Under the pieces are notes generated by a model. It was not told where the DNA came from. It did not search any database and worked only from the letters and a program-made list of their open reading frames with translations. From contig CAZSRA010000001.1 in NCBI GenBank assembly GCA_964609585.1, positions 156,697 through 220,696 on the forward strand: a stretch of DNA of 64,000 nucleotides, read 5' to 3'. This document shows, in pieces, positions 4,329 to 51,836 of this stretch (positions are counted from its first letter, which is position 1; each line of letters starts with the position of its first letter). This DNA comes from an uncultured Candidatus Saccharimonadales bacterium (GTDB lineage Bacteria; Patescibacteriota; Saccharimonadia; UBA4664). Both the position numbers and the translations under genes were made by a program.

Positions 4329-4478
4329 ACGTCTCCTTTCCAACACACTCGTTTCATCGGTAACACCAATTGGTTTTGATAATACCTGAGACGAGCCAAG
4401 AGGGCAAGGAAAATCTTTATGGTTTTTAAAACGTCGTGAGGCGCCCGGGGATTCCCGGACGCCTCTGATGGCGACTGT

Positions 4479-5202
4479 TCAGGTAGGGCTTCTGAGCAGT
4501 CGCCGGCTAATGATTCGTTCAGCTTGCGTGAGCGAATTGATTGGATAGATGTCTCGCCGGCGGGTTGACGCGCGATCTTTCCCGTCTGTCGTGAGATTGT
4601 GGAAAAGAAGGGTGTGCCCCGTGAGTGGGTGGACGGCGAGGACGTTTTGTCCTTTGTCGTCAATGAGGATGACACGTCGGCAGATTCGTCCGTAGACTGA
4701 AGGTCTTCGTTCGTGGGTTGTAGCCGTTTTGGAGCAGCTCCCCTTTGTTGCCCGAGATCACATACACCTGGAGGTCTTTGAGTTCGGGGCAGAATGAAAC
4801 CTTGAACTCCTGGTGGACCGACGCTCCCTTTGTGATAATTATGGGCTGCACTTTTGGGTGGCGCTGAAGGAAGAGCACAAGCTCCTTCGCGCCCGGCCGC
4901 AAGTACGGATGCCCATTTGGGTACTTTTTCTCGACGTAAGCCCTGATCTGAGCCTGTGCATCCGAGATTCCGTACTGCTCGAGGAATCCGAGGACGTCGA
5001 AGTCGCCCATCTTCTCGGCTTCTTGCATGGTGTGGACTGCTTCCAGGCCCTCGAGCTGGGCGAACCACTCCATGACATCGGAAAAGTACAGGCCGGAGTC
5101 GAAGAGCGTGCGATCCAGGTCTAGCACTGCGAGCCAGTCGAGGATTAGCTTTTGGACTCGGGGTCTCACGGACGGAACCGCGGCTTTTATAGTGCAAGCC
5201 AT
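4479..5202 (-). pseudogene. HAD-superfamily hydrolase with an apparent +1 frameshift near 4680-4740
   Basis: Frame A carries motif I LDLDRTLFDS and motif II PIIIITKG and stops at 4660. Motif IV VILIDDKGQNV continues in a second frame that ends at 4479. The start ATG (5200-5202) has an AGGAG RBS. Confidence 0.45.
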
Positions 5203-5318
5203 TTTCCGTCTCCTCTCACTTGTGGATTGATGGCTTCGCGACACGATACCACATTTGTTTTATTTTGTCATTTCTAAATTGTAGTGGCGGCTGGTATATT
5301 TTGAGGGTTTTTGATAAA

Positions 5319-6017
5319 TTAGCGCACTTCGGTAAGGGATGTAATTATTTTAATGTCCGGTCGCCCGGTAACGGGCGGATATTTGGCGTCTTTGCGGACG
5401 ATTTGGTACAGCGTGAGGCCTGGTCGTTTGGTAATGGCACCGATTTGTTCGGCATTGTCTTCAATAACGAAGGCTTCGTCATAGTGTTTGGTGCCTGCTT
5501 GAAAGCCATTGCGCCAGAGCTCGCTTAGGAACCTGCCTTTGTTGTCTTCAATGATCTCTTTGCCTTCGAGAATAATGTGTGGGATGGGAGCGACATAGTG
5601 GCCGAGTCGGCGTTCAAGCTCGCTATGAATAAGCTCTAGCTTGAGTTCCTGGGTTTTTCTCACCCCAACGGTGATAAACCATAGGTCGGTTCCCGCTTGC
5701 TTTAAGAGGCGTTTGAACATACTTACGGCGTCGTCAAATACGAGATTGTGATGGCGCATACCTTCTATTATTTGGGGACGAAGCTCATCGAAGTCGAGGC
5801 CGTATTGCTGCTTGAGGTGTTCCTCGATGTCGTGGCCAAAGCTGCGGCCGTCGGTTTTGAAGTAGAACTCCCCCACTTCTTGATGGAAAATTTTTGCGTC
5901 AATGCGATTTGGGTAGAGTTTCGACATAACTTCCCCGAGGGCATCAACTGCCCTGTAGGTTTGATAGATGCTGCTGTCGATGTCGATTGCGCCGACGCGG
6001 TTGACGGGATCTGTCAT
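5319..6017 (-). CDS. HAD-family hydrolase (second, adjacent paralog)
   Basis: AIDIDSSIY DxD motif near the N-terminus; FVIEDN motif IV; TAGGAGAG RBS. Confidence 0.55.
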   Translation of the reverse strand: MTDPVNRVGAIDIDSSIYQTYRAVDALGEVMSKLYPNRIDAKIFHQEVGEFYFKTDGRSFGHDIEEHLKQQYGLDFDELRPQIIEGMRHHNLVFDDAVSMFKRLLKQAGTDLWFITVGVRKTQELKLELIHSELERRLGHYVAPIPHIILEGKEIIEDNKGRFLSELWRNGFQAGTKHYDEAFVIEDNAEQIGAITKRPGLTLYQIVRKDAKYPPVTGRPDIKIITSLTEVR

Positions 6018-6029
6018 GGCTTTTCTCTC

Positions 6030-7253
6030 CTATTTCAACATATCGAGAGCTTTGTCGAGCTGAGGATCGCGGTTGGCGTTGAAGTCGTCGGCCGTAAGTT
6101 TGATGTCGACGTCGGGCTTGATCCCTTCTTTGTTGATGTTGATACCGCCGGGGGTGTACCAGTGGGCGACGGTAACTTTGAGCTGCGAACCGCCAGGCAG
6201 ATCTTTGATTTCCTGGACGCTGCCTTTGCCGAAGCTTTTTTCGCCTTCGAGCTGAGCGACTTTATTATCGTGAAGGGCACCAGCGACAATTTCCGAGGCG
6301 CTAGCAGATCCGCCGTTTATGAGCACTACGGTTGGCAGGCCGATGAGTTTGCCGCCGGCGCTGGCGGGGAGGGTGTTGGTAGTTTTGCCATCGGTGCGCT
6401 CAGAGACGACTGTTTTGCCTTCAGGTAAAAACTCGCTAGCAACAGATACGCCAGCGTCGAGGTAACCGCCGCCGTTGCCTCGTAGGTCGAGGATGATTTT
6501 GGTGGCACCTTGGCTTTTGAGATCGGCTGCGGCTTGGTCGACGAGACCGGCGGTGTCGGTACCAAAGCGGGTAATGTCGATATAGCCGACATTGCCGTTT
6601 TTGAGGCTCCATTTAACGCTTTTAACGGTAATGTTGGCTCGTGTGATCGTGACATCAAACGCAGCTGGAGTGCCACTACGAATGAGGTTTAGGGTGACTT
6701 TGGTGCCGGCTGCTCCGCGAATTTTCGAAACAGCGGTGTCGACATCCATGCCGGTGGTGTCTTCACCATTGATTTTGGCGATGAGGTCGCCGGTTTTGAG
6801 TCCAGCGGCTGCAGCGGGTGTGTCTGCAATGGGTGAGATTACGGTTAGGACATTGTTTTTGATGCCGATTTCCGCGCCAATGCCAGAGAGTTGGCCGTTT
6901 AGATCGTCCGATAGGGCTTTTGAGGCTTGGGGATTTAAGTAGACGGTGTAGGGGTCGCTGCCAGCTGCAACGAGACCAGCCTTGGCGCCGTCAAGCGCTT
7001 GCTGATCGGTGATTTTGCCATCGAAATTGCGCTGCATGAGTGCATAAATGGTGTTTAAGCTCGAAAAGTCGAGGTGGTGGGCTGGTTTTGCAAAGGGATC
7101 CGGAATGATGCCGGGGTACATGTCGCCGACGTAGAACGATCCGAGTGCGATAACAAGAATGCCTGCGCCGAGAAATATGGGGTTGATCTCGACTTTTTTC
7201 AAACTGACGAATTTATTCAAAATGAATGAACCTTTCTTTAGCGCTGCATTCAT
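6030..7253 (-). CDS. ctpA: C-terminal processing peptidase S41 (tail-specific protease) with PDZ domain and N-terminal membrane anchor
   Basis: PDZ segment GIGAEIGI...GDLIAKING; S41 core ILDLRGNGGGYL. Confidence 0.8.
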   Translation of the reverse strand: MNAALKKGSFILNKFVSLKKVEINPIFLGAGILVIALGSFYVGDMYPGIIPDPFAKPAHHLDFSSLNTIYALMQRNFDGKITDQQALDGAKAGLVAAGSDPYTVYLNPQASKALSDDLNGQLSGIGAEIGIKNNVLTVISPIADTPAAAAGLKTGDLIAKINGEDTTGMDVDTAVSKIRGAAGTKVTLNLIRSGTPAAFDVTITRANITVKSVKWSLKNGNVGYIDITRFGTDTAGLVDQAAADLKSQGATKIILDLRGNGGGYLDAGVSVASEFLPEGKTVVSERTDGKTTNTLPASAGGKLIGLPTVVLINGGSASASEIVAGALHDNKVAQLEGEKSFGKGSVQEIKDLPGGSQLKVTVAHWYTPGGININKEGIKPDVDIKLTADDFNANRDPQLDKALDMLK

Positions 7254-7304
7254 TAGTGTAGCCGATTTGGAGATTTTTTGCCTGAGAATATGAATTTTAG
7301 TTTG

Positions 7305-8408
7305 CTAGCGGAAGTGGATGAAATACAGCGAACTTGTCTGCCATTCGTCGACGGAGTAATGACCGGTGTTGTCGGCGTTGAAGCTCGAGACGATGACAGT
7401 GGAGCTTTTGACCTGCTCAACAATCATGGCATGTCCGAAAGCTCCGCCCATATAGATGGCCACATCACCGATATGGGGCGAATTATCTACAGGGATCCCG
7501 GAGGCTCTGGCGTTACCGGGCCACTGGTTGGCATTGCCGCGTCCGCCCCAATAGGGCATGGTGTGGCCGAAGCGTTCGGCAGTGGCCCAGGCGGCGTAAC
7601 TTACACATTCACGGTTATACATTCCCCACGAATCGGCCATGCTGTCCTGTGGAGAATTGCACCAGACCGCGGGATATCCGCCGCAACCCGACCCGCCGCT
7701 AATGTGGTGGCTGGCGGCGGCGATAGCAATAGCCTGCTCGGATCGTAGCTTGGAAACCTGGGCATTAGAGTCTCGCACCTGCTGATCGGCAGAGGCGGCA
7801 TTTTGGCTGTAGAGTGCGAGTAATTGTGCGGCTTCATTCCGGGTTTTGTCTAGCGCTATTTGCTGACTTTTCTGATCTTCTAGAGTCTTAGCTAAGCTTG
7901 TTTGCTGATCTTCGAGCGACTTTTTTAACTTCTGAATCTCGTCCATAGCTGATTGAATTTTGGTTTTGATGGTTTCTCGGTATTGCTCGGTGTCTAAAAA
8001 ATCGCTTATGTTTTGGCTGGAAGCGAGCATTTCGATGGGAGAAACACTTGAGTCGAAGTACATTGTTTTTACGATGTCGGCGAGGACGGCTTTTTGGTTC
8101 GCTAGCTTGGCCTGTGCGTCGGCTATTTGGGCAATAAGTTTGGCCGACTGGGCTTCGTTCAAGTTGATCTGGGTTTGGAGTTCGCGGATTTGGGCATTGA
8201 GCTGGTTAAGCTTAGTTTGAGCGTCGCTGGCTTGGGCGTGAAAAGTTGCTGCTTGGGCTGCGGCATCGGCAGCTTGTTGTTTGGCGGCGGCAATGGCATC
8301 GTCGAATTGATCGGCGTACACATTGCCGGCTGAGAGCAACAGGATAAGCACGACGCTGAGGCTAGCGAAGATTTTTTTGAAGATTTGAATTTTTTGAACG
8401 CTACGCAA
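7305..8408 (-). CDS. PcsB-like secreted peptidoglycan hydrolase (coiled-coil plus C-terminal CHAP domain)
   Basis: Signal peptide; long Ala/Gln-rich coiled-coil; CHAP Cys (NRECVSYAAW) and His (GHAMIVE); sits directly downstream of ftsX. Confidence 0.75.
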   Translation of the reverse strand: MRSVQKIQIFKKIFASLSVVLILLLSAGNVYADQFDDAIAAAKQQAADAAAQAATFHAQASDAQTKLNQLNAQIRELQTQINLNEAQSAKLIAQIADAQAKLANQKAVLADIVKTMYFDSSVSPIEMLASSQNISDFLDTEQYRETIKTKIQSAMDEIQKLKKSLEDQQTSLAKTLEDQKSQQIALDKTRNEAAQLLALYSQNAASADQQVRDSNAQVSKLRSEQAIAIAAASHHISGGSGCGGYPAVWCNSPQDSMADSWGMYNRECVSYAAWATAERFGHTMPYWGGRGNANQWPGNARASGIPVDNSPHIGDVAIYMGGAFGHAMIVEQVKSSTVIVSSFNADNTGHYSVDEWQTSSLYFIHFR

Positions 8409-8488
8409 AAATCTGGCCCCTCCAGGTTAGCTTTATGTTACGTTACCCGTTTCTTATCTGTCAAACTCGTTCTGGAGGTTCATCGTGC

Positions 8489-9406
8489 TTACAGTTTTAA
8501 ATAGCGGCTCATGGCGAGTAGGCTCGACAAGATGCCAATACACATACCGATCAAGATTTGAGCGCAAATAATGAGAAATGGGTACGATGTGAAGAGAATC
8601 ATGGTGGAATGGACGTTGATGTAATTGCTGAGTTTGGGGCCGACACCAAGGAGAAGTGCATACGCTAGAGCCGTGGCGATGAAGGCGCCGACCGTGCCAT
8701 ATAGTATGGCCTCAAACAGGAATGGCCCGCGTATAAACCATTTTGTGGCGCCGACGAGTTTCATAATTTCGATTTCATCGCGTCGAGTGAAAATAGCCAT
8801 CCGAATGGTGTTAAAGATAATGAGCGTAGATATTACAAGAAAGATCAGACTGGCGATCAACCCAAGCTGGATAACGAAATCTGAACCATGAATGATGTTT
8901 TGAATAGCATCTTTGCGCGAGCCGGAGATGCTAACGGGATGTTGGCTATCGAGCAACGGCTTGATCTGTGGGTCACTTGCGACTTTGATGAGGTCATTGA
9001 GTTTATTGCGATCTTTTAGGTGTACTTCGTAAGATGCCGGTAAGGTGTTGCCGGTAATTTCGATAGCTTCAAGCTGGGTGGGATTATTTTTATTTTGATC
9101 TTTGAAGTGAGCGACGGCGTCGGCTTTTGAAATATAGTCAATTTGCTGAACATTGCCGGTAGCTTTGAGGCGGTCTTCGACGAGCGTTTTTTGTTGATCA
9201 GTAATGGTGTCCTGCAGATAAACGGACAACACGATTTTGTCGGTTAGACCTTTGACGGTGTCGGTAAGAGCGGAATTTGAGATAAACGATATAACGACGA
9301 TCGTGAGCGTGACGGTCATGACGGCTGTGGCGGCGGTAGAAAGCCACAGATTCCGGAGGAAATTTTGGCTACCGGCAAGCAGAACGCGCCATAATTGCAG
9401 CATCAT
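8489..9406 (-). CDS. ftsX: Cell division permease FtsX
   Basis: 4-TM FtsX topology with a large extracellular loop; 4-bp overlap with ftsE. Confidence 0.8.
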   Translation of the reverse strand: MMLQLWRVLLAGSQNFLRNLWLSTAATAVMTVTLTIVVISFISNSALTDTVKGLTDKIVLSVYLQDTITDQQKTLVEDRLKATGNVQQIDYISKADAVAHFKDQNKNNPTQLEAIEITGNTLPASYEVHLKDRNKLNDLIKVASDPQIKPLLDSQHPVSISGSRKDAIQNIIHGSDFVIQLGLIASLIFLVISTLIIFNTIRMAIFTRRDEIEIMKLVGATKWFIRGPFLFEAILYGTVGAFIATALAYALLLGVGPKLSNYINVHSTMILFTSYPFLIICAQILIGMCIGILSSLLAMSRYLKL

Positions 9407-10095
9407 TTGCCGCCCTCGAGGGTGTAGCGGCCTTGCTCTTCGTCTTTGATGATACGACCGCGGTTGATGGTAATGACGCGGCGTTTGAGGGCGTTGACGA
9501 TTTCTTTATTGTGCGTGGTGAGGAGAACGGTAGTGCCGAAACGATTGATTTTGAGCAAGAGCTCAATAATTTCCCAAGCGTTTTTGGGGTCGAGATTGCC
9601 GGTGGGTTCGTCGGCGATGAGAATTTTGGGTTGGCGAATGAGCGCCCGGGCGATAGCGACGCGTTGGCGTTCGCCGCCGGAGAGCTCGTGAGGGTAGGCA
9701 CGTTCTTTGGAGGCGAGGCCGACCAGGGTGAGCATTTTGGGCACAGCGCGCTTGATCTCGCGGCCTCTGGCACCCGAAACTTCGAGCGCGAAGGCCACGT
9801 TTTCGCCGACTCGTCTGCCCGGGAGGAGCTTGAAGTCTTGGAAAACGACACCGATGCGGCGGCGAACAAGTGGGACGTCGCGGGGACGGATGGTGTCGTA
9901 GTCGAGTCCGCCCACAATGAGCTTGCCGGAGGAGTGCACTTCTTCGCGGGTCAGAAGTTTGATGAGGGTGGATTTGCCGGCACCACTGGAGCCGACGATG
10001 GTGACAAATTCCTTGGGTTGAATATGCAGATTGAGACCGCTGAGAGCGATCATTTGATTTGGGTAAACTTTCGTAACGCGGTCAAAGAGAATCAT
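9403..10095 (-). CDS. ftsE: Cell division ATP-binding protein FtsE
   Basis: Walker A GSSGAGKST, signature LSGGERQRVAIARA, Walker B ILIADEPT. Confidence 0.85.
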   Translation of the reverse strand: MILFDRVTKVYPNQMIALSGLNLHIQPKEFVTIVGSSGAGKSTLIKLLTREEVHSSGKLIVGGLDYDTIRPRDVPLVRRRIGVVFQDFKLLPGRRVGENVAFALEVSGARGREIKRAVPKMLTLVGLASKERAYPHELSGGERQRVAIARALIRQPKILIADEPTGNLDPKNAWEIIELLLKINRFGTTVLLTTHNKEIVNALKRRVITINRGRIIKDEEQGRYTLEGGK

Positions 10096-39529: not shown

Positions 39530-41371
39530 TTAATTAATGCGTCGTGAGCCACTCGTTTTAACAGGTCTGAGGCCAGGTTTTACGAGGACGGTAGCCGTAA
39601 TGGGTGTGCCATCGGCGTTTATGGCTGGGCCAATGGTATCAAGTGCGGTGGGAGTTGAGATGGACCCCGGAGATGCGGCAGCGGCAGGTGCGGCCGCTTG
39701 GGCTTGTTGCATTTTTTCGACTTCGGTTTGGGGCAACCGGGGTAGAGTGAATTTAAAGGTACTCCCCTGCCCCGGTTTTGATTCGACCCAGATCCGACCG
39801 TTGAATGACTCGATGAGTTGGCGGCACAGATACAGACCAAGGCCGGTGCCTCCGATGGTGCGCGTGGCTGAGTTGTCGATACGGTAGAATTTTTGGAAAA
39901 GGTGGACAGCGTCTTCGGGTGCAATGCCAACGCCGGAGTCGCTAATGCCGACGGTCACTTCTTTCTCATTGCCCTCTAGGATGGCTTTGACGCCGCCTTC
40001 GGGCGTGAATTTAATGGCGTTGTCGATGAGGTTGGTGATGACCTCGCGCAGACGTTCGGGGTTGGCGGCCACGTAGTATAGGGGCGCAATAGCTTTGCCA
40101 GATTGGCCGCCGATCTGATAGACGAGGGTGAGGCCTTTTTTCTGAACGGTAAATTGCATGTCGTCGATGGCGCTTTCTAAGAGTTTGCCGAGGTTTACGG
40201 CTTCGGTGCGACCGCCCAGGTGGCCTTCTTCGGCTTTGGTAACGGAAAGGAGGTCGCGGAAGAGTTCGCCGAGATGGCCAATGGTGTCGTGGGCTTTGGT
40301 GAGGTATTTCATAGCGCGGTCGTCGATGGTGGCCACGTTGGCGTTCATCGCGAGCGATATATAGCCTTCAATGGCTGCGACGGGGGTGCGCATTTCGTGG
40401 CTGGCGGTGCTCACAAATTCATCTTTTTGGCGTTCCACTTCTTTTTCGCGGGAGATGTCGCGGAAGAGGGCGATGGCGCCACTAGGCTGACCAGAAGCAT
40501 CGAAAATAGGTGAAATGGAGAGGTTGAGCTGGACTTTGTGACCACCTCGAGTGGTCATTACAAGATCGTCCCGCACGACTTCGGATTGCTTTTTCCAAGC
40601 TTCAGCAAAGGGGTCGTTGAGATCGGTGAGAGCTTGGTCTTCGGCGGTTTTGAGTTGAAGGACGAGGTTGTAATCGATGCTTTGAGCGCTGGTCTGATCC
40701 CAGCCGGTGAGCTCCTGGGCGGCTTTGTTGAAGAGCTGGATGCGCCTCATGCTATCAACTACCATGACCCCTTCACCGATGCTCGACATGATGGCATCGG
40801 CCTTGAGCTGCTCGGTGCTGAGCTGGCCGGAGAGGTTTTCGAGCTTGGTGGTGGCGGCATTGGCTCTACGACCACGCAGGTGAATCCAAAGAGCGAGGCC
40901 GGCGGTAGCTAGGGTGATGCCGAGCTGTACGAAGTGGTCGTTCATGTACGGGGCATGGAGCCCTTTGATTATGAAGCTGGCGAGGTAATATACGAGCGTT
41001 AGGCTCATTACGACGATAATTTCGGTCAGACCAAAAAGCCCGGCGATAACGATGGCGAGTAGCCAAAATGAGTAAAATGGTGAATCGAGGCCGCCGGTGG
41101 CGGTGATGATAAGGACGAGATTAATAGCCGTAATGATGCTCAGTACAAGAGTGGAGAGTGCGAGGTGCCTATGCCTGAGTACGAGATGAAGGGTAACAAA
41201 GTAAACAGCGGCGATGGCGCCTAGAATGGCAGCGGCGAGGGACAAACTAGTGTCGAGCAGAAGATTTGGAGCTAGGGCGTAAAAAGCGAAAACAGCAATA
41301 GCAATAGCGCCGCCGATGGCGGCTTCAAGACGGGCTAGTATGATGAGACTGCGGGTCCTTTGATCTAGCAT
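39530..41371 (-). CDS. Sensor histidine kinase (multi-TM, PAS, HisKA, HATPase_c)
   Basis: About 6 TM helices; H-box STASHEMRTP; G-box GLGLYLCRQL; Pro/Ala-rich C-terminal tail. Confidence 0.85.
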   Translation of the reverse strand: MLDQRTRSLIILARLEAAIGGAIAIAVFAFYALAPNLLLDTSLSLAAAILGAIAAVYFVTLHLVLRHRHLALSTLVLSIITAINLVLIITATGGLDSPFYSFWLLAIVIAGLFGLTEIIVVMSLTLVYYLASFIIKGLHAPYMNDHFVQLGITLATAGLALWIHLRGRRANAATTKLENLSGQLSTEQLKADAIMSSIGEGVMVVDSMRRIQLFNKAAQELTGWDQTSAQSIDYNLVLQLKTAEDQALTDLNDPFAEAWKKQSEVVRDDLVMTTRGGHKVQLNLSISPIFDASGQPSGAIALFRDISREKEVERQKDEFVSTASHEMRTPVAAIEGYISLAMNANVATIDDRAMKYLTKAHDTIGHLGELFRDLLSVTKAEEGHLGGRTEAVNLGKLLESAIDDMQFTVQKKGLTLVYQIGGQSGKAIAPLYYVAANPERLREVITNLIDNAIKFTPEGGVKAILEGNEKEVTVGISDSGVGIAPEDAVHLFQKFYRIDNSATRTIGGTGLGLYLCRQLIESFNGRIWVESKPGQGSTFKFTLPRLPQTEVEKMQQAQAAAPAAAASPGSISTPTALDTIGPAINADGTPITATVLVKPGLRPVKTSGSRRIN

Positions 41372-41538: not shown

Positions 41539-41614
41539 GGTCCTGTCGTCTAGTGGTTAGGACATCCCCCTCTCACGGGGAAGATCAGGGGTTCGAATCC
41601 CCTCAGGACTACCA
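41539..41614 (+). tRNA. tRNA-Glu (anticodon CUC), CCA encoded
   Basis: 76-nt cloverleaf with 7-bp acceptor GGTCCTG/CAGGACT, anticodon loop CTCTCAC and T-loop GGGGTTCGAATCCCC. Confidence 0.85.
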
Positions 41615-41655
41615 TAAGTTGCTCTTTAGAACCGTAATCAGTAAAAAATTGCGGG

Positions 41656-42263
41656 TTACCCAAAACAAGGCTTTCGGCCTTGTTTTTTGGTTGCACAATG
41701 AAGTGGTTGGCGAGCGTTTTTATGGCGCGGTATGGTTCGGCCGTCCACTTCTTCGAGCGTGTTGTGGTAGCCGATGGCTGCCCTGTTAACGGTACCGCCT
41801 GACTTGGCTTTTTGGATCATGCCTTTGGCGACTTCGTTGGCTAGGTTGCCGGAATGGAACTCGGCGATGGTAGCCATGATGCCGTGGAGGAGCTTGCCGG
41901 ACGGGGTCTCGTCAATGTTCTCGGTAGCGGATACTAGCTTGGCTCCAGCGGTATGTAAAGCCAGGTTGGTGTAAACGTCATCTTCCCTGTTGCGGGCAAG
42001 GCGGTCGATTTTGTGAACGATGACGTAATCTATGGTTTTCGCTTCTTTGAGTAAGGCGAGCATGGGCTTGGAGCTGTGGTCGGTCGGCGGAGCGGGCAGA
42101 CTCTCCCCTATCGATTAACTCGGCGGTAACTTCTGCGCCTAGGCTTTCGGCTTTACGGGTACAGGCTTCGCGCTGGGTGGGGATTGAGTAGCCTTCGGGG
42201 TCGCGGTCTTTCTCTGCTTGGCCGGGGGGTCGAAACCCGGAGATATATAACAGCTTGCTTCAT
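41656..42263 (-). pseudogene. Serine recombinase (resolvase/large serine recombinase catalytic domain), frameshifted and 3'-truncated
   Basis: ATG with AAGGAGGTG RBS gives MKQAVIYLRVSTP; the frame is lost at a G6/C6 homopolymer (42223-42228), resumes with ...DRLARNRED... in a third frame, and the ORF finally reads through the terminator hairpin. No C-terminal DNA-binding/recombinase domain remains. Confidence 0.7.
41660..41690. terminator. Bidirectional terminator hairpin downstream of the tRNA
   Basis: CCAAAACAAGGC-TTTCG-GCCTTGTTTTTTGG. Confidence 0.6.
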
Positions 42264-42372
42264 ACTGGCACCTCCTTCGTGTTAGTCCAGGAGAGGATAC
42301 CAGATGTTTGCCGAATCACGGAGGATAAAACATCATCGGCTTTCCCGGCTGTTTAGTCGTCAGAAGAGAAAT

Positions 42373-42391
42373 ATGTAATTGAAAATTACAT
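42373..42391. promoter_or_regulatory. Perfect inverted repeat upstream of the recombinase remnant (candidate recombinase binding or res subsite)
   Basis: ATGTAATT-GAA-AATTACAT. Confidence 0.3.
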
Positions 42392-42666
42392 AGAGTTGCC
42401 TGCACATTGGGGACGATAATGTGTCTGGTAAAGCTAAATCACGACAAATTACGTGACAGCGATCTAGCGGACGAAACAGCAGGTGATCTAATATTTCCAT
42501 GCCAGGAGAGAGTTAGACTAATAGGCTTTCAGCTTCATAAGTCGCTCCCTAAGTAGTATGTATATAATGGAGTTGTCGGATTTAACGGCCATAGGCTTGG
42601 GGAAAGCATTTCGGGTGATTTGAGGGCTACATCAGTTGAATAGCGAAGTGAAAATTATTCTTAACC

Positions 42667-42701
42667 AAAAAAACTGCCAGTATTTAACTGGCAGTTTTTT
42701 T
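42667..42701. terminator. Bidirectional rho-independent terminator
   Basis: AAAAAAACTGCCAG-TATTTAA-CTGGCAGTTTTTTT. Confidence 0.65.
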
Positions 42702-42711
42702 GGTTAAAGCT

Positions 42712-43023
42712 TTAGCACTCGGGAAGTTTGAGCAGGTTATTCTGATCAGTTGCATCGGGGCGAGTCTGCAAGAACTTTGTTCCGTTGGCGCTAGTGTTCA
42801 CGTAGCAGTATGCTCGAGGGCGTACTCGTTCAACGTAGGCACGTACTTCAAAACCTAGGCTCCCGTTAAGATAGCTCACAACGGTCTCTCGCGTACTAAT
42901 CACATTTTTGCTTACTCTACCATCGGGCTCATATTGCACCCATTGGTAGTGGGTTGCTGCCTCGTGGGGGTTAGAATGGTTCCCGTTATCTTTTCGAATA
43001 CCAACTATTTCAATTTCTGCCAT
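42712..43023 (-). CDS. Small hypothetical protein (103 aa), second gene of a two-gene island operon
   Basis: ORF immediately followed by a terminator; no recognisable catalytic motif. Confidence 0.45.
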   Translation of the reverse strand: MAEIEIVGIRKDNGNHSNPHEAATHYQWVQYEPDGRVSKNVISTRETVVSYLNGSLGFEVRAYVERVRPRAYCYVNTSANGTKFLQTRPDATDQNNLLKLPEC

Positions 43024-43181
43024 TGCAAATCCTTCAGATATGTTACATTGTAATTATTATCCAAATCTGCTACTGTAGCAGGTGATCCGGAAATTCGGCT
43101 GCCAGGCCATTGTTTTCGGTTTAAAGAGTCTCGGTAGCGAAACCTGTCGAGCCTCTTTTTATTTGCCTACATTCCGCCCTC

Positions 43182-43649
43182 CTAAAATGGTATGTCACCC
43201 AAGTTTATTTTTCCCTCGTCCTCACTTGTGTTGTCGGTGTCCGTTGTATCTGGTTCTTTTGTGAATTCTTTCTCTTTGAGCTGGATTACGTAAGCATCAC
43301 CCTCAGAGTTAATTCCTAATATGCGTAGCGGTACTTTCTCAAAATTGTCGTACCTGCCACTGTACTTCGATGTATCAATATTCTTGATATCAAAAAACGA
43401 ATTCGCCACGATAACACCGCCTTGGGTATCGTTCGGAATTCGTACCTTTAAACCATATTTTGCATCCGCGAGAGTGAAATGAAGCGCAATTTTTTGATTT
43501 TCTCTGTCATACAAGAGAATGGCCTTGTGCTGGCTGGTGATATTTTGTTTTCCGATGAACGCACGGGGCAAGCCGAATGCCTTATTCTCGGTGATTGAGA
43601 TATATTCTTTGGTCCTAACCCCAACGTCTTTAAATATCTCGAAAGGCAC
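43182..43649 (-). CDS. Hypothetical protein with acidic disordered C-terminal tail ending DIPF (SSB-C-terminus-like)
   Basis: C-terminus EPDTTDTDNTSEDEGKINLGDIPF; N-terminal two-thirds is beta-rich and of unknown fold. Confidence 0.45.
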   Translation of the reverse strand: MPFEIFKDVGVRTKEYISITENKAFGLPRAFIGKQNITSQHKAILLYDRENQKIALHFTLADAKYGLKVRIPNDTQGGVIVANSFFDIKNIDTSKYSGRYDNFEKVPLRILGINSEGDAYVIQLKEKEFTKEPDTTDTDNTSEDEGKINLGDIPF

Positions 43650-44329
43650 TTTTTCTACTCCGACTCCGAATGATTTTATTGATATTGTTATCGTATTCCC
43701 CTTGCTCTCTTAATGCAATACCTCCCCTTGTGAACTCTTATTCTCACTCTTTGTGGTGTAAATGGGCTGCCGGGTTTGAACATTTAGATGGTAGTAGATA
43801 CAAAAAACCAAAGATCTAGCCCCATAGTTCTTATGGCTTAGTAAATTACTTGTATTTTTCCTGCTAATAAATATCTCCTTGTAATATTGATATTGTCACG
43901 TTGTTTCTCTTTAAATACGCAGCGAGCTGTTCTTTGTGTGGCTAAACACAATATGCGGCTATAGTCTGCTTCGGCTAAGACTGTCGTATGGCCACTGACT
44001 GAGTAGACATATATGTTCAATCGTTCTGAAGCCGACAGAACAGGACTACCAAAGGATTTATTTGAGTGTGCTCCCGGAAAAGTCGGCAAGAAAGATGCTG
44101 GCTTTTTGGCTCTAGCCAAATACCAGCAAGGGCGAATATGAACATCACAAAAGCGAGGACGGTATTATAATTCATGGCCTCAGCGCGTCAAAACCCTTGC
44201 TATAGCATATATGTACAACTGATATCATGTATGAAAGTTTTGTGTGCGCGGGAATTTGCACTTGTTGTCACGCCAGGGGGATGCTTGTGCATACCAATTT
44301 GGGGCGGCATGGGACGGTTTTATCCGAGC

Positions 44330-44338
44330 TGATATAAT
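44330..44338 (+). promoter_or_regulatory. Extended -10 promoter element (TGaTATAAT) for the 44388 gene
   Basis: TGATATAAT lies about 50 nt upstream of the ATG; AGGAG RBS at 44378. Confidence 0.45.
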
Positions 44339-44387
44339 GGCTCATTAACGCGTACTCTCTGTCGTATCACTGAGGATAGGAGCTACA

Positions 44388-44987
44388 ATGCTTGATTGGA
44401 TCATCACCATTATTAAATGGCTGGGTGTTGATTGGACCGCCTTAATCACAACTGTATCTGGCGCAATAGTGGCCTTGGCTACCGCCGGTGGTGTCGTGGC
44501 GGCATGGGTTGGGCTGGACACATGGAAGAAGCAGCTTCGTGGGACTACGGAGTACGAATTGGCAAAACGGGTACTCATGAGTGTTTATGGGGTTCGTGAC
44601 AGCATGAGAGCTGTAAGGGATCCCTTTATATCTCCAGGGGAGGCCGACGATGCTGCCGAGGGGGACTGGGAGCTCTCGGCGTATCAAAACCGTTGGGGTA
44701 AGTTTGTCGAGGTTGCCAGAGAATTGGACGTTGGACTGCTTGAGGCTGAGGTCGTTTGGGAGAATAATCCTCTCAGGGGCTATCGAGCCGAGTTGAACAA
44801 GCCGATTGCCGGACTTGTGATCGCCATAAGGCACCTTACTCAGGATAAAAGAACGCTACGCTCAACTTTATTTTCCGAGAAAGACGAGAAAGTATTGTAT
44901 GCCGAAGGGGATGATGACTTCGACAAAGAATTAACCAGGATTGTTGGTAAATTTGAGGATTTCATACGACCTCATTTGAAGAAGTGA
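44388..44987 (+). CDS. Hypothetical membrane-anchored protein (N-terminal TM, cytoplasmic acidic domain)
   Basis: Hydrophobic N-terminal helix; no known motif. Confidence 0.45.
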   Translation: MLDWIITIIKWLGVDWTALITTVSGAIVALATAGGVVAAWVGLDTWKKQLRGTTEYELAKRVLMSVYGVRDSMRAVRDPFISPGEADDAAEGDWELSAYQNRWGKFVEVARELDVGLLEAEVVWENNPLRGYRAELNKPIAGLVIAIRHLTQDKRTLRSTLFSEKDEKVLYAEGDDDFDKELTRIVGKFEDFIRPHLKK

Positions 44988-45227
44988 GGTTGATGGTGGC
45001 ATTTATTTTGCATCATGTCGTGCTGGTGGTGATGTTGACTCAAAGTGTAGTGAGATGATTCCCTAGACTCTCTGGAGCTTAAGTCACCTTATTTTTGTAA
45101 TTATCTTTACGGTTATGATAAGGCGTAGCTATTTATTTGTATTTTAATGATAATTATGTTATAGTGTTCTAATCGTTGATCTCGAGATTTTTTGAGACGA
45201 CGACGCGATCTTGACTATCACAGCTAT

Positions 45228-45246
45228 TGAGCGTGATGAACGCTCA
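45228..45246. promoter_or_regulatory. Palindrome overlapping the putative promoter of the cold-shock-domain gene
   Basis: TGAGCG-TGATGAA-CGCTCA located between TTGACT and the GAGGAGG RBS. Confidence 0.3.
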
Positions 45247-45260
45247 GTGAGGAGGCCGTA

Positions 45261-45914
45261 ATGGCTGGTACCGCACGCCCCCGTTCCGCTGGCCAGTCGG
45301 GCGGCCAGAGTACGGTACGGGTGGTCTTCGTGAGGGTGGTTGGGTACTTCTCCGACCGCGGCTTCGGCTTTGCCGAGATCATCGGCGAAACCAGTGGACC
45401 CACAAAGGTCTTCTTCCGCATCGAGAAGCTCTGCATCGTGACCGGCTCCTATGAGGAGCCGAAGTTCGCCGACCCTCACCCGAACCCGGCGGAGATCAAC
45501 CCGCTCCAGATCGAGGCCGGAAGGCAAGTCGTGATGGAGGTGGAATCTACCACTAAGGGCCTGCGGGCACGGCGTTGGGGAATAGCCCCTGTGTTCTCGC
45601 CGATCACCCAGCTTATTCGCGAGAAGGTGCTGGACGGCTTCATCGGTGGGCATGTGGGCATATACCAGAACGGCAGGCGGTTCGTGGCGTACCCCAAGGG
45701 GACATTCACGGGCTATGAGCTCACCGAAAGTGAGCTTACCGTGTACTTCACCTGGGAGGACTTCGGTGACTCGGTCCTGGAGGGTTACCAGGATCACCGG
45801 CAGTACTACTTCACTGGGCCCGCCTGGCGACTCGGCTTTGGGGGACTGCTCGAACTCCATCCCTCGGACCACTCCGATGAGCTGATCATGTTCTGGCCTC
45901 CGGACCAGAAGTGA
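45261..45914 (+). CDS. Cold-shock-domain (CSD) fusion protein with unknown C-terminal domain (high-GC ORF)
   Basis: VRVVGYFSDRGFGFAEIIGETSGPTKVFF matches the CspA RNP1/RNP2 pattern; about 150 further aa of unknown function. Confidence 0.5.
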   Translation: MAGTARPRSAGQSGGQSTVRVVFVRVVGYFSDRGFGFAEIIGETSGPTKVFFRIEKLCIVTGSYEEPKFADPHPNPAEINPLQIEAGRQVVMEVESTTKGLRARRWGIAPVFSPITQLIREKVLDGFIGGHVGIYQNGRRFVAYPKGTFTGYELTESELTVYFTWEDFGDSVLEGYQDHRQYYFTGPAWRLGFGGLLELHPSDHSDELIMFWPPDQK

Positions 45915-45923
45915 GCTCGCGAC

Positions 45924-45975
45924 GCCGGAGCCCCGGAGATTGGCGCGCATTACGCGCGTCCTCTGGGGCTCCGGC
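45924..45975 (+). terminator. Long nested GC-rich hairpin downstream of the CSD gene
   Basis: GCCGGAGCCCCGGAG ... CTCTGGGGCTCCGGC enclosing GCGCGCATTACGCGCG. Confidence 0.45.
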
Positions 45976-46222
45976 CTCAGACTAAGTTCTCAACTATGTT
46001 GAGAGTTTAGAATGAGTTGATGGATTTGGGCTGGATCTCTTACGATGCGCAGTTGTAACAAGTTAGCAGTCTCTATACTCAAGAACTTAACTTGCTTTAT
46101 AACAAATTTAGTGTTATTACTATATATAGTTCTTTTACATCGTTAGTGGGGAGCTAGTTGTTTGTCTTGGGTTGGTGAAGATTGACAGTTAGCTCTACAA
46201 GCTGCCGCGGAGAGAAGGCGTC

Positions 46223-46735
46223 ATGTTAGATGGCAGCCAAAACCCCAGGAGGTTTTCAGTGAGCACCGAACTGCACTTCGATCCGGACAACTTTCCGCCT
46301 GAGCTCTTGCCGTTCGCAGAGTTGCGTGACGGTTTCCTGTGCTACGTGAGACAGGATGTTCTGATCGAGGTTCCCGAGGGCTTCGCTGGCGCAACGCTCA
46401 TTCACGTCATCCTCACCCAAGACGTCAACTCTGATCTCGGTGAGGGCATCGTCAAGCAGGGCGGCGCTACTGCGACCGTGAAGGTCGCGACCTGCAAGAT
46501 CCACGAGACGACCATCATCGTGGGGGTACCGGATCTCGATCAGGCGAATGCGCTCCTTCGGGACGTCGTGGCTGGTACCGTCGACTTCACGACGACGATC
46601 CGACCGCGGCCGGAGGAGACTGGAGCGTCAACTGCGGCGGGCCGGCTGGCAGAATATCTGGGCTGGGTCGAACACGACACTCAAAAGGCCGCTGCACTGC
46701 TCGGCGAGGGTCTGAGGCGTCTGTTCGGCAAGTAA
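46223..46735 (+). CDS. Hypothetical protein (high-GC ORF)
   Basis: ORF with a GAGAGAAGG RBS; no known motif. Confidence 0.4.
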   Translation: MLDGSQNPRRFSVSTELHFDPDNFPPELLPFAELRDGFLCYVRQDVLIEVPEGFAGATLIHVILTQDVNSDLGEGIVKQGGATATVKVATCKIHETTIIVGVPDLDQANALLRDVVAGTVDFTTTIRPRPEETGASTAAGRLAEYLGWVEHDTQKAAALLGEGLRRLFGK

Positions 46736-46813
46736 CGGGGAGCATCATGGGCGGGTGGCCTGGGCGAGAAATCGCCCGGGTCACTCGCCCGCTTCCTGTT
46801 TTAGGGATCGGAA

Positions 46814-48841
46814 TTATTTAGATGTCCTGGCCGACACGGGTGCCATGAACTGGCTATTGTACAGCGAAGCGTAAAACCCTTTTTGTTTCAGCAATTGATC
46901 GTGTGTCCCCTGCTCCACAATGTTGCCGTCTTTCATCACTAGGATGAGGTCGGCGGTGCGGATGGTGGACAGACGGTGAGCTATGACGAAGCTGGTGCGG
47001 CCTTTCATGAGGCGCTCCATGGCGGCTTGGATAAGGGTTTCGGTGCGGGTATCTACTGAGCTCGTGGCTTCGTCGAGGATGAGCATGGGGGTGTCTGCCA
47101 GCATGGCACGGGCGATGGTAATGAGCTGCTTTTCGCCGGCGGAGACGTTGTCGGCTTCTTCGTTGAGCTGCATTTGGTAGCCGCCGGGTAGGGCGCGGAT
47201 GAAATGATCGGCGTGAGCGGCCTTGGCCGCTGCTACTACTTCGGCATGGGTAGCGCCGGCTTTGCCGTAGGCAATGTTGGCCTTGATGGTGCCGGTAAAG
47301 AGCCAGGAATCCTGGAGGACCATGCCAAAGAGGCGGTGAACGTCAGCGCGTTTCATGTCGCGGATGTCGACGCCATCGAGCTTGATGCTGCCAGAATTTA
47401 CGTCGTAGAAGCGCATGAGGAGGTTGACGACAGTGGTTTTACCAGCGCCGGTGGGCCCGACGATGGCGATACGGTGGCCGGGTTTTATACGCGCGGTAAA
47501 GTTTTTGATAATGGTTTTTTCGGGGGTGTAGCCGAAGACGACGTTGTCGAACTCGACCGCACCTTTGACGGCCGGTAGAGTGATGGGATCGGTTTTTTCG
47601 GCAATTTGGTCGGGCTCATCCAGGAATTCGAAGACGTGCTCGGCGGCTGCGGCGGTAGATTGCAGTACGTTGGCGACGTTGGCGGTTTGCATGATGGGCT
47701 GGGTGAATTGGTTCATGTACTGGATAAAGGCTTGGATATCGCCAATATTGACACGGCCATTGACTGCCAGCCAGCCGCCAAGCACGGCAACGGCGACGTA
47801 AGCGAGGTTGCCTACAAAGGTCATGATGGGCATCATGAGGCTCGAGAGAAATTGGGATTTCCAGGCGCTGCCATAGAGCTGTGTATTAATAGTGCGGAAG
47901 GTGGCGACGGAGCGCTGTTCGCCATTGAAAGCTTTCATGACGGTGTGGCCGGAGAACATTTCTTCGATGTGGCCATTGATGCTTGCAAGCGAAACCTGTT
48001 GCTGCACGAAATAGCGCTGGGACCGGCCCACGATGAGCTTGATAAGCACAAGACTCACGGGCAAAACGAGTAGTGCAACAATGGTCATTTGCCAGCTAAT
48101 GGTGAGCATGATGATGAGAATGCCGATGATGGTAGTGATGGAGGTGACGATTTGGGCGAGGCTTTGATTGAGTGTTTGGCTCACGGTATCGACATCGTTG
48201 GTGACGCGGCTGAGGACTTCGCCGTGGGTGCGAGTGTCAAAATAGCTCAAAGGGAGGCGGCCGATTTTGAGCGAGATGTCGCGGCGGAGGTTGAAGGTGA
48301 TTTTCTGAGAGACACTGGTCATGATCCAGCCCTGAATGTAGCTAAAGAGGGCGCTTGCGAAATACAGACCTACGAGTAATTCGGCGAGTTGGCCGATGCC
48401 AGTAAAGTCGATGCCGGGACGCTTGGATAGGTCGAGTTGTTTGATGGTGTTTAGGCTTGCGGCTGGGATTTTTTGGACCTGGCTGGCAGGGAGCTTAGCG
48501 AGCAACTGGGCACCCGTGGTGCCGGCCGGGAAATGAGTGCCGGCGGGAAGCGTCTTCATGAGGTTGTCGTAGGTTTTTTCGTGAATGTAGCCGGTAACGA
48601 TTTTGTTGGTGGCGTTACCTAGGATTTTGGGGCTGACGATGGCAAACACGGTGCTGGCCATGGCAAATACGAGCACGGCGATGATCGAGAGTTGGAACGG
48701 CTTTAAGTACTTCAAAAGCGTACGCATGGTGGCTTTGAAATTTTTGGGTTTGGCGACGGGACCACCGGCCATCATACCGGGGCCGCGTCCCATCATGCCG
48801 GGACCTATGGCGGGTCTTGAGGTAGAACGAGTTTCGCTCAT
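46814..48841 (-). CDS. ABC exporter, fused permease-ATPase (half of a heterodimeric multidrug-type exporter)
   Basis: 6-TM domain plus NBD with GPTGAGKTT, LSAGEKQLITIARA and ILDEATS; Gly/Met-rich N-terminal extension. Confidence 0.85.
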   Translation of the reverse strand: MSETRSTSRPAIGPGMMGRGPGMMAGGPVAKPKNFKATMRTLLKYLKPFQLSIIAVLVFAMASTVFAIVSPKILGNATNKIVTGYIHEKTYDNLMKTLPAGTHFPAGTTGAQLLAKLPASQVQKIPAASLNTIKQLDLSKRPGIDFTGIGQLAELLVGLYFASALFSYIQGWIMTSVSQKITFNLRRDISLKIGRLPLSYFDTRTHGEVLSRVTNDVDTVSQTLNQSLAQIVTSITTIIGILIIMLTISWQMTIVALLVLPVSLVLIKLIVGRSQRYFVQQQVSLASINGHIEEMFSGHTVMKAFNGEQRSVATFRTINTQLYGSAWKSQFLSSLMMPIMTFVGNLAYVAVAVLGGWLAVNGRVNIGDIQAFIQYMNQFTQPIMQTANVANVLQSTAAAAEHVFEFLDEPDQIAEKTDPITLPAVKGAVEFDNVVFGYTPEKTIIKNFTARIKPGHRIAIVGPTGAGKTTVVNLLMRFYDVNSGSIKLDGVDIRDMKRADVHRLFGMVLQDSWLFTGTIKANIAYGKAGATHAEVVAAAKAAHADHFIRALPGGYQMQLNEEADNVSAGEKQLITIARAMLADTPMLILDEATSSVDTRTETLIQAAMERLMKGRTSFVIAHRLSTIRTADLILVMKDGNIVEQGTHDQLLKQKGFYASLYNSQFMAPVSARTSK

Positions 48842-51080: not shown

Positions 51081-51171
51081 GTGGATGTAAGGTATTATTG
51101 ACTAGTCATGCATTATATCTCATGATATGGATCTTAGTCGCAACCTGGCGACTTGCACCCAAGGAGATTCA

Positions 51172-51786
51172 GTGAGTGTTTTCCGTGGGCAGAGGCCCAC
51201 TCCTGGCCCGTCCCCCGCCCAAGTTCTGGCAGCGGCTCGGGTTAAAGGTTTCAAGGCTGCAGTTGACGCTCGTGTGAGGGAGTTCGGCCTCAGTCCGGAT
51301 CTTCCCGAGATCCTGAGCCTTAAGCATGGTGCGACTTCGTTGCTTGAGGGCGCGTCGTGGAAGGATGCCTGGGATACATCCCTGAGCAATCTCGACCCGA
51401 AAAAGGACGCCCTTTGGTCGCCGGCTGATCGGCACCTGACCGTTTGCCAGTGCCTGACGGGCTTTGTACTTACCCCTCAGTCGCTGATCAATTTCTTCTT
51501 CGCCGAGCCTGAGGTGCGATCGTTCAGCCGTATCCGTTTGGATGCCGACGGTATCCGTATCTACGACAAGCGTGGGGAGCGGGTGCATTACCACGCTGGC
51601 GCTCCCGGGCTTCACGAGCTCCCCGGTCCGAACGGCGTGCAGAACGCGGCGATTGTTGTCAATTTCTTCACCGGCCTTGATCTGAGCTGGGAGGTCCTCC
51701 GATGCTTTGTTTGGGCTGAGTTCAAGCTCGTCGGTGGTCTCAGCTGGGTTGCTGAGTACGGTACGGAGCCTGCCGCCACTTCCTGA
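51172..51786 (+). CDS. Hypothetical protein (high-GC ORF)
   Basis: GTG start preceded by AAGGAG; GC-rich codon usage unlike its neighbours. Confidence 0.4.
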   Translation: MSVFRGQRPTPGPSPAQVLAAARVKGFKAAVDARVREFGLSPDLPEILSLKHGATSLLEGASWKDAWDTSLSNLDPKKDALWSPADRHLTVCQCLTGFVLTPQSLINFFFAEPEVRSFSRIRLDADGIRIYDKRGERVHYHAGAPGLHELPGPNGVQNAAIVVNFFTGLDLSWEVLRCFVWAEFKLVGGLSWVAEYGTEPAATS

Positions 51787-51836
51787 CCTCCCCGCCAAGC
51801 AACGGCGCATCGATCTTTCGGTGACCCCGCTGCTGT

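Follow-up and report, generated by a model that had tools for sequence, protein, structure and literature searches.

The DNA analyzed here is a 64-kb stretch of a metagenome-derived assembly of a member of the Saccharimonadia (TM7, Patescibacteria), hereafter the window, and the subject of this report is a block at 41.6–46.8 kb in which a broken large serine recombinase gene and five small accessory genes lie beside a tRNA-Glu(CUC) gene. We read this block, with a probability of about 0.75, as an immobilised relic of horizontally acquired DNA in a variable zone past the tRNA. A preliminary description of the sequence had proposed an inactivated serine recombinase within foreign DNA next to tRNA-Glu, and this proposal is borne out: the lesions of the gene recur in Logan contigs of run SRR9179560, an assembly separate from the window's own, and nowhere in the window does tetranucleotide usage deviate more than in the block. 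The further notion of one coherent element fared less well, being at odds with a composition that falls into at least three or four classes within 5 kb. The recombinase gene is best annotated as a pseudogene and its five neighbors as accessory genes.

Presence of the recombinase and of the cargo was assessed in about 160 related Saccharimonadia loci, and the ends of open reading frames (ORFs) were scanned in six frames over the window and 176 loci (~2.4 Mb). Compared contigs carry L-numbers (L005, L085 and so on) and compared proteins P-numbers (P0003, P0006). The protein libraries scanned were Pfam, NCBIfam, PHROGs, PADLOC-DB 2.0, PDB, IMG/VR, GenBank phages, and a set of 5.8 billion proteins. 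A search of the literature on serine recombinases or islands in Saccharibacteria yielded nothing bearing on the locus. The features at the recombinase end of the block are as follows.

41539 to 41614, + strand: tRNA-Glu(CUC), a conserved chromosomal landmark (ARAGORN; Rfam tRNA model, 66.9 bits)
About 41659 to 41690: GC-rich hairpin with A/T runs on both sides, read from the sequence, with the palindrome AACAAGGC-N5-GCCTTGTT at 41664
41731 to 42263, − strand: large-serine-recombinase pseudogene (Pfam Resolvase, PHROG 95, alignment to L085/P0006)
42064 to 42066, − strand: frameshift 2, CC to CCC, a +1 insertion (blastn against L085)
42224 to 42229, − strand: frameshift 1, a +1 insertion that gives a C6 run (G6 on the + strand) where homologues have C5
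42372 to 42392: perfect palindrome TATGTAATT-GAA-AATTACATA, about 110 nt upstream of where the recombinase gene starts

The recombinase gene begins intact. As the preliminary description had it, a strong ribosome-binding site (AGGAGG) precedes an ATG at 42263 on the − strand, and the N-terminus, MKQAVIYLRVST, contains the IYLRVST motif of the catalytic domain; the opposite-strand tRNA-Glu(CUC) is placed next to the gene by both ARAGORN and Rfam. The domain can be read only once two frameshifts have been removed, the product being three frame pieces joined: in the three-frame translation the protein moves to the second frame after the C6 run and to the third after the CCC. The frame-repaired recombinase matches Pfam Resolvase PF00239 over residues 4–156 with an E-value of 1.4e-32 and the PHROG 95 integrase family with an E-value of 5.7e-41. 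Because homologues read VSTPGQA at the first lesion, five C are needed there and the window has six; the CCC of the second lesion is the sole gap in a 494-nt alignment with L085, which has CC. The two losses of frame that had been described from the sequence, at the G6 homopolymer and again downstream of it, are both confirmed at these positions, which lie about 160 nt apart.

In terms of domain content, the pseudogene retains the catalytic resolvase domain and the first ~20 residues beyond it. It is 86% identical to L085 in nucleotide sequence and 93% identical to the L085 protein, P0006, in amino-acid sequence, and this homology breaks off sharply at 41731, after ...GYHNTLEEVDGRTI. From the break, P0006 runs on as KTVAIDPERAPL..., matching the Recombinase domain PF07508, and then enters a Cys-rich region that resembles the start of a zinc ribbon. 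PF07508 is not present in the pseudogene, and the zinc-ribbon and coiled-coil domain is not in the window, the distance from the truncation point to the tRNA being only 116 nt. Codon ~177 is fused directly to the tRNA flank, and the residual ORF, 41656–42063, passes through the hairpin at ~41659–41690, which is probably the tRNA terminator, to a stop at 41656. The loss of the C-terminal half and the reading through the terminator hairpin, both noted before, are therefore accurate. Without its DNA-binding half and with its frame broken twice, the recombinase is nonfunctional.

These lesions recur in the Logan assembly. Contig L086 matches the window with 100% identity over 41575–44360, a span that takes in both frameshifts and the truncation junction, as does L081 over 44380–47152 for the remainder of the block, so the lesions and the junction are not the artefact of one assembler. 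The 135-aa recombinase ORF, p217, and a 158-aa form of p170 (both among the accessory proteins described below) are likewise on record from an NCBI assembly and from the Logan SRR9179560 contigs. The Logan contigs end at 41575 (inside the tRNA), at 44360/44380 (just upstream of the p199 gene), and at 47152 (inside the first ABC gene); such breaks may mark branch points from strain variants.

Homologues of the recombinase are numerous (780 at E ≤ 1e-20) and include the Saccharimonadia protein P0003 (73%) and Actinomycetota proteins of ~65% identity from Microthrixaceae, Thermoleophilaceae, and Rhodococcus. Among solved structures the closest by sequence is 3guv (E 7.5e-10), a site-specific recombinase of the resolvase family, and the catalytic domain of TP901-1 integrase also matches the relic. 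All three of the closest copies are damaged. In the Saccharimonadia contig L082 the recombinase (4218–5759) is cut by an insertion sequence element and lies beside a Replic_Relax gene; in L083 it is split in two ORFs (6863–8646) and has a Peptidase_M78 gene and a GH25 lysozyme as neighbors; in L085 it is truncated at both ends and has neither its catalytic N-terminus nor its C-terminus. This damage suggests either that the integrase lineage decays rapidly or that a multicopy element has caused breaks in the assemblies. As a separate observation, homology of L085 (1–118) to the window starts exactly at the edge of the C6 run (42224), with unrelated sequence upstream in L085; the coincidence may reflect chance, a chimeric contig, or a recurrent breakpoint.

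The DNA that surrounds the pseudogene differs from the rest of the window by three independent compositional measures, and by these the block is foreign. The strand-symmetric tetranucleotide distance from the window mean reaches its maximum for the 64 kb at 42.0–45.0 kb, stays up to 47.0 kb, and is at baseline again inside the ABC exporter genes, in agreement with the earlier placement of the end of the block at the marR-ABC operon. GC skew, which is ~+0.2 window-wide, is −0.1 to 0 at 42.65–44.0 kb and ~0 at 45.2–46.7 kb. GC content along the block is 40–46%, 51–56%, 37%, 61%, 44%, and 58–63% in turn, which is the alternation of AT-rich and GC-rich segments reported at the outset. GC at third codon positions (GC3) is 61% in the recombinase, 47% in the DUF3892 and p155 genes, 52% in the p199 gene, and 72–78% in the p217 and p170 genes, with flanking native genes at 61–70%. 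On the scale of the window, the + strand has a strong positive GC skew throughout even though most genes lie on the − strand, so the coding strands are C-rich; the + strand genes at 52–54 kb share the skew, which indicates that it tracks the DNA strand and not the coding strand. A second GC-rich stretch (59–60%) occurs at 51127–51810, just past the marR-ABC genes, where ORFs of 219 aa (+) and 213 aa (−) overlap; they have no NCBIfam match, and codon-position GC does not reveal the coding strand.

The tRNA beside the block is a fixed point in an otherwise variable neighborhood, and the Rfam scan of the window returned no non-coding RNA above threshold other than tRNA. Linkage of a histidine kinase gene (39530–41371 in the window) to tRNA-Glu(CUC) is kept in ~25 related loci. 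Relatives of this kinase come mostly from metagenome-assembled genomes (MAGs) of Saccharimonadia/Saccharibacteria or from MAGs with broader labels only, a few lower-ranked matches bearing other phylum labels; the best amino-acid identities are 73% among GTDB genomes and 77% among JGI metagenomes, neither scan returned a conspecific, and an exact-protein look-up of the kinase gave no match. Past the tRNA, the genes vary from genome to genome and include those for an aldehyde dehydrogenase, a class II aminoacyl-tRNA-synthetase-like protein, a type IIG-like methylase, an inositol monophosphatase, and a phosphotransferase, as well as ORFs without a family. Neither the recombinase nor any of the five cargo proteins has a relative encoded in the ~160 related loci. 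Homologues of the window at ~53.6–54.0, 60.9–61.4, and 61.9–64.0 kb return several kb downstream in the relatives. The zone that is variable by synteny (41.6–53.6 and 54.0–60.9 kb in comparison with L002, L004, L006, and L008) exceeds the compositional island, and the marR-ABC exporter operon, a methyltransferase, two asparaginase-like genes, riboflavin genes, and carAB are also absent from this locus in the relatives.

Direct repeats of a tRNA 3' end are the classical footprint of tyrosine-integrase islands. In three relatives such repeats of the tRNA-Glu 3' end lie 0.1 to 2.8 kb downstream of the tRNA: in L005 at 968–989 (19/22, 2.8 kb off the tRNA), in L011 at 9691–9712 (19/22, 108 nt off the tRNA), and in L019 twice, at 8588–8609 (21/22) and 7669–7690 (19/22). 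Because of these repeats and the variable genes past the tRNA, the sequences identify the tRNA-Glu(CUC) locus as an integration hotspot in the clade. The window itself has no such repeat. Near 46.8 kb, where the preliminary description had suggested that one be sought, there is none, and the 23-nt tail of the tRNA occurs a single time in the 64 kb with ≤3 mismatches allowed. A serine integrase is not expected to leave a tRNA-derived direct repeat; the lack of one is as expected of such an enzyme, and one element end is deleted in any case.

The five accessory genes and the hairpin that separates them from the recombinase side are given below.

42661 to 42707: perfect hairpin with a 21-bp stem and flanking A/T runs, after the DUF3892 gene
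42712 to 43023, − strand: stand-alone DUF3892 protein, 103 aa, GC 48% (Pfam PF13031)
43182 to 43649, − strand: p155, GC 42%, no detectable family
44388 to 44987, + strand: p199, GC 50%, N-terminal transmembrane helix and four-helix bundle
45261 to 45914, + strand: p217, GC-rich ORFan, GC 61.5%, GC3 78%, followed by a GC-rich hairpin at 45921–45978
46223 to 46735, + strand: p170, GC-rich ORFan, GC 60%, GC3 72%, with an alternative GTG start at 46259, followed by a GC-rich 20-pair hairpin at 46748–46791

None of these genes acquired a housekeeping identity from the Pfam, PADLOC, PHROGs, or NCBIfam scans, as had been anticipated, and there is no paralogy among the island genes. Against PADLOC-DB 2.0 the six products of the block gave no match at E ≤ 0.1; the lone PADLOC match in the window, to DruH (E 0.024), is insignificant and falls on a doubtful 93-aa ORF. 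The earlier suggestion that the cargo could be a defence or anti-host module therefore finds no backing in PADLOC, and hints of defence are limited to the literature on DUF3892, which is computational, and to one AbiC match among 52 relatives of p199.

Of the cargo proteins, p199 belongs to a large unnamed family. A threshold of E ≤ 1e-3 gives 1736 cluster representatives and one of E ≤ 1e-10 gives 634, nearly all ~200 aa in length, and the window protein aligns end to end with the 634. Conservation extends along the full length (W46, R77, and E119; the motifs GLxTWxxQL, VRxPF, LLEAEVxW, and PHL). The AlphaFold model calculated from the family alignment has a pLDDT of 94.6 and shows a transmembrane helix that runs into a four-helix bundle. 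Foldseek comparison of this model with BFVD gave weak matches (probability 0.92–0.99, E about 0.1), among them an HP1 int-C1 intergenic ORF and a mycobacteriophage protein. The window p199 has no Pfam, NCBIfam, PADLOC, or PHROG match; its profile is insignificant against PDB, GenBank phages gave no match, and plasmids gave one weak match in an uninformative context. Three other family members each match three PHROGs of unknown function, and the one relative that matches the PADLOC AbiC model does so with an E-value of 6.9e-6.

In unrelated genomes, homologues of p199 at 35–46% identity occur in four contexts. The first, in L169–L171, is a ~4.5 kb element between ychF and the trp genes that encodes an intact serine integrase of 531–539 aa together with HTH_17 and HTH_3 proteins. 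In the second (L173 7001–8607, with L174 and L175 alike), a Peptidase_S24 repressor gene lies upstream and a PIN_12 gene 6 nt downstream; Replic_Relax and DUF2188 genes are neighbors, and a 1320-aa T5orf172/ResIII/Eco57I helicase-methylase is encoded ~0.8 kb past PIN_12. The L173 pair of p199-family and PIN_12 genes may form a two-gene module in a defence-island-like setting. In the third context the homologue is two genes away from an HTH_17 gene and a tyrosine integrase gene, and in the fourth it is found among small ORFs without assignment, 2.9 kb from a tRNA-Trp. The neighborhood of integrase, excisionase, and repressor is the usual position of superinfection-exclusion and abortive-infection genes. 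By this analogy we infer that p199 is element cargo of the integration/immunity-region type; exclusion or abortive infection would be its most likely role, which we suggest with low confidence.

A second protein of interest is p155, whose C-terminus, ...DTTDTDNTSEDEGKINLGDIPF (also ...EDEGKINLGDIPF), is an acidic tail that ends in the tip motif of a bacterial SSB, the protein that binds single-stranded DNA. The body of p155, ahead of an acidic linker and the SSB-type tip INLGDIPF, is beta-rich in an AlphaFold2 model from the single sequence whose confidence (pLDDT 37) is too low to judge the fold. The genuine SSB encoded on L169 (277–729) ends in ...EPINLDDIPF and is identical to the p155 tip at 7/8 positions; in the six-frame scan of the window and the 176 loci, p155 and this SSB are the only ORFs that end in this way. 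Relatives of p155 are absent from the Pfam, PADLOC, PHROGs, NCBIfam, PDB, and viral scans, and an OB fold was not detected, there being no match to Pfam PF00436 even at E ≤ 10 and no PDB sequence match. The SSB C-terminus is an established docking site for SSB-partner proteins. Judging from the tail, p155 could be an SSB of the element itself that has diverged greatly, or else a mimic of the SSB tail, and its tip could, with low confidence, dock onto SSB-partner proteins.

Of the remaining cargo, the DUF3892 protein is the only one with a Pfam assignment (PF13031, E 2.5e-9; score 37.9 bits, Pfam gathering score 22.3; profile positions 1–71 of 71 covered), and it also matches phrog_8224 (E 1e-5). 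DUF3892 has been tied computationally to defence and conflict operons, and an RNA- or ribosome-binding fold has been suggested for it (bioRxiv 10.1101/2022.04.27.489752, 10.1101/2025.01.14.632903). The two GC-rich genes at the far end of the block match only themselves among the 5.8 billion proteins and have nothing in IMG/VR, PDB, Pfam, NCBIfam, PHROGs, or PADLOC. GC at the three codon positions is 0.61/0.45/0.78 in p217 and 0.66/0.43/0.72 in p170, which argues that the + strand ORFs are probably real genes and not chance ORFs in GC-rich DNA, and their high GC3 points to a donor of higher GC than the host genome; an actinobacterial host or one of its elements would be an attractive guess for that donor. 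Residues ~20–100 of p217 (45261–45560) hold motifs reminiscent of a cold-shock domain (VGYFSDRGFGF, VFFRI, and IEAGRQVVMEVESTTKG) that are collinear with CspA. A cold-shock domain was considered for this protein and set aside, the two short collinear CspA matches in BLASTP (E 0.03 and 0.06) being accompanied by no Pfam cold-shock domain match, so that the resemblance is a lead only.

Perfect palindromes are enriched in the region: those with arms of ≥8 nt number 5 against 0.58 expected, and the one previously described upstream of the recombinase is indeed there, with GAA as its three-nucleotide spacer; it may be an operator or what is left of a recombination site. The hairpin at 42661–42707 resembles a terminator that acts in both directions. 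The first description gave every gene a promoter and a terminator of its own, which holds in part: strong hairpins follow three of the genes (DUF3892, p217, and p170), but consensus promoters (10 against 6.0 ± 2.4 in shuffled sequence) and terminators (8 against 6.1 ± 2.7) are not enriched. The best promoter-like sites diverge at 44139–44191 (TTGACG-16-TATAAT, 11/12, on the − strand; ATCACA-16-TATAAT on the + strand) and lie between doubtful − strand ORFs, one of 93 aa and one of 52 aa with a hydrophobic N-terminus, and the p199 gene. An integron-cassette reading of the hairpins after genes was rejected, as there is no tyrosine (IntI-type) integrase and inspection revealed no attC-like core sites.

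With respect to known systems, the relic shares its N-terminal resolvase-type catalytic domain, with the YxRVS motif, with the integrases of TP901-1, phiC31, and Bxb1 and with the SCCmec Ccr recombinases, and as in large serine recombinase elements the gene sits at the edge of a small accessory block. It differs from those elements in that the gene is dead, with two frameshifts and everything after residue ~177 lost, and in that attL and attR cannot be defined in the window. Serine-integrase prophages differ further, as PHROGs give the window no phage structural, lysis, or replication genes; the only PHROGs matches are integrase/invertase families (recombinase) and families of unknown function (DUF3892), and neither IMG/VR nor GenBank phages hold close relatives of window products. 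Adjacency to a tRNA is atypical for serine integrases and here probably stems from the deletion or from a general hotspot. The tRNA islands of tyrosine integrases likewise adjoin a tRNA and have deviant composition, accessory cargo, and a decayed recombinase. However, the relic in the window is of the serine family, Pfam detects no tyrosine integrase (Phage_integrase) among the island ORFs, and the tRNA-Glu 3'-end repeats seen at this locus in relatives are missing from the window.

The nearest intact analogue among the contigs compared is the L169–L171 element, which is of the same size (~4.5 kb), also lies between housekeeping genes with a serine integrase at its edge, and contains small hypothetical genes and a p199-family gene whose product is 41% identical to p199. 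Its integrase is intact, including the zinc ribbon, and has no tblastn similarity to the window relic; it also encodes HTH_17 (excisionase-like) and HTH_3 (repressor-like) proteins that the window lacks, and no other cargo is shared. For p199 alone, lactococcal Sie2009, AbiC, and the HP1 int-C1 ORF offer a functional analogy as prophage genes of the integrase-repressor region with roles in superinfection exclusion or abortive infection, p199 being small and membrane-anchored with relatives near integrase, excisionase, or repressor genes; p199 itself has no significant sequence or structure match to any characterised exclusion protein, and its four-helix bundle is a generic fold. The feature qualifies neither as a working serine integrase nor as a tRNA island of the tyrosine type, nor does it count as a prophage or a catalogued defence system; what can be assigned in it is a resolvase-domain relic, a DUF3892 protein, and a member of the unnamed p199 family only.

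A history consistent with these observations would begin with the insertion of an integrative element with a large serine recombinase beside tRNA-Glu, at original attachment sites that are now irrecoverable. A later deletion would have removed the recombinase gene's 3' two-thirds along with the element end next to it, giving the fusion of codon ~177 to the tRNA flank, and the two +1 homopolymer insertions broke the frame, either then or also. As the recombinase is dead, the element can neither excise nor move. Five accessory genes, apparently transcribed separately and at least three of them ending in strong hairpins, would have persisted. Given its several compositional classes, more than one acquisition at the hotspot most likely went into the block, a single mosaic element being less probable. 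By analogy with known elements, and with low confidence, the cargo would be typical mobile-element accessory or conflict genes.

A number of results weigh against a relic of acquired DNA. The absence of the block is seen in relatives whose kinases have ≤77% amino-acid identity, where synteny is loose anyway, and because conserved genes resume only at ~53.6 kb, the right boundary at 46.8 kb is set solely by composition. Neither attachment sites nor meaningful direct or inverted repeats bracket the block. The contigs with the closest recombinases have no cargo in common with the window, so that a link between recombinase and cargo is putative, and with regard to cargo roles the PADLOC, NCBIfam, and PDB searches of window proteins were empty. 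Some of these points bear equally on the tentative alternative that the recombinase and all five genes arrived as one integrative element and decayed in place. The genes are contiguous, with the recombinase at one edge, an arrangement shared by intact elements with a serine integrase such as L170; genes of the p199 family belong to the usual cargo of these elements; and the compositional anomaly is continuous over 42.0–47.0 kb. Four GC3 classes in 5 kb (61%, 47%, 52%, and 72–78%), the lack of any cargo gene on the closest-recombinase contigs, and element ends that cannot be identified all argue against a single arrival. A reading in which no island exists, the five genes being fast-evolving and lineage-specific and the recombinase fragment an unrelated pseudogene, would suit the abundance of ORFans in genomes of the candidate phyla radiation, the poor synteny past tRNA-Glu in all relatives, which affects even ordinary metabolic genes, and the failure to find attachment sites. 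It is nevertheless quite improbable, as the block stands out in composition more than any other part of the window and has lost the host GC skew, its GC3 departs in both directions from that of native genes, and homologues of p199 reside inside integrative elements of unrelated genomes at 35–46% identity.

Whether the block is instead an active anti-phage or anti-host islet, with DUF3892, p199, and their neighbors working as a module and the dead recombinase irrelevant, turns on the function of the cargo, and we regard this as unlikely. DUF3892 is linked computationally to defence and conflict operons, 1 of 52 p199-family members matches AbiC (E 6.9e-6), and the p199 homologues of L173–L175 have PIN_12, a helicase-methylase, and DUF2188 nearby. 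However, no window protein matches PADLOC apart from the insignificant DruH hit on a doubtful ORF, the AbiC-matching member was not found among ten rescanned, and the partners seen elsewhere (PIN_12, an S24 repressor, a CapH/CapP-like pair) are missing from the window, where the genes lie on both strands as separate transcription units divided by terminators and form no operon. Finally, an assembly or sequencing artefact, in which homopolymer errors or a chimeric join at 41731 conceal an intact recombinase, is scarcely credible. Both frameshifts do sit in C/G homopolymers, and the window comes from a metagenome-derived assembly, but the 100% identity of L086 extends across the homopolymers and the junction, a CC-to-CCC error is improbable in short-read data, and the DNA-binding half is missing even without the frameshifts.

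Two of the cargo proteins can be combined into a bolder proposal, in which p199 stands for a widespread, undescribed family (at least 1,700 clusters at 50% identity) that resides in the integration/immunity region of integrative elements and acts in superinfection exclusion or abortive infection, and p155 is an SSB-tail decoy; that both parts hold jointly is doubtful. If true, p155 would be a mobile-element protein that recruits or titrates SSB-partner proteins via a host-type tip, and the relic would keep a small conflict toolkit in a minimal-genome episymbiont.

A decayed integrative element or islet is a well-known kind of object, and the block leaves current understanding unchanged. The genomes of Saccharimonadia, which rely on host bacteria, are very small, and traces of gene flow such as this one show how such reduced genomes gain accessory functions. 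Serine-integrase elements enter these genomes yet appear to decay fast, as all three of the closest recombinase relatives are also disrupted. Worth carrying forward are the p199 family, which is large, confidently foldable, nameless, and recurrent on mobile elements, and the SSB-type tail of p155.

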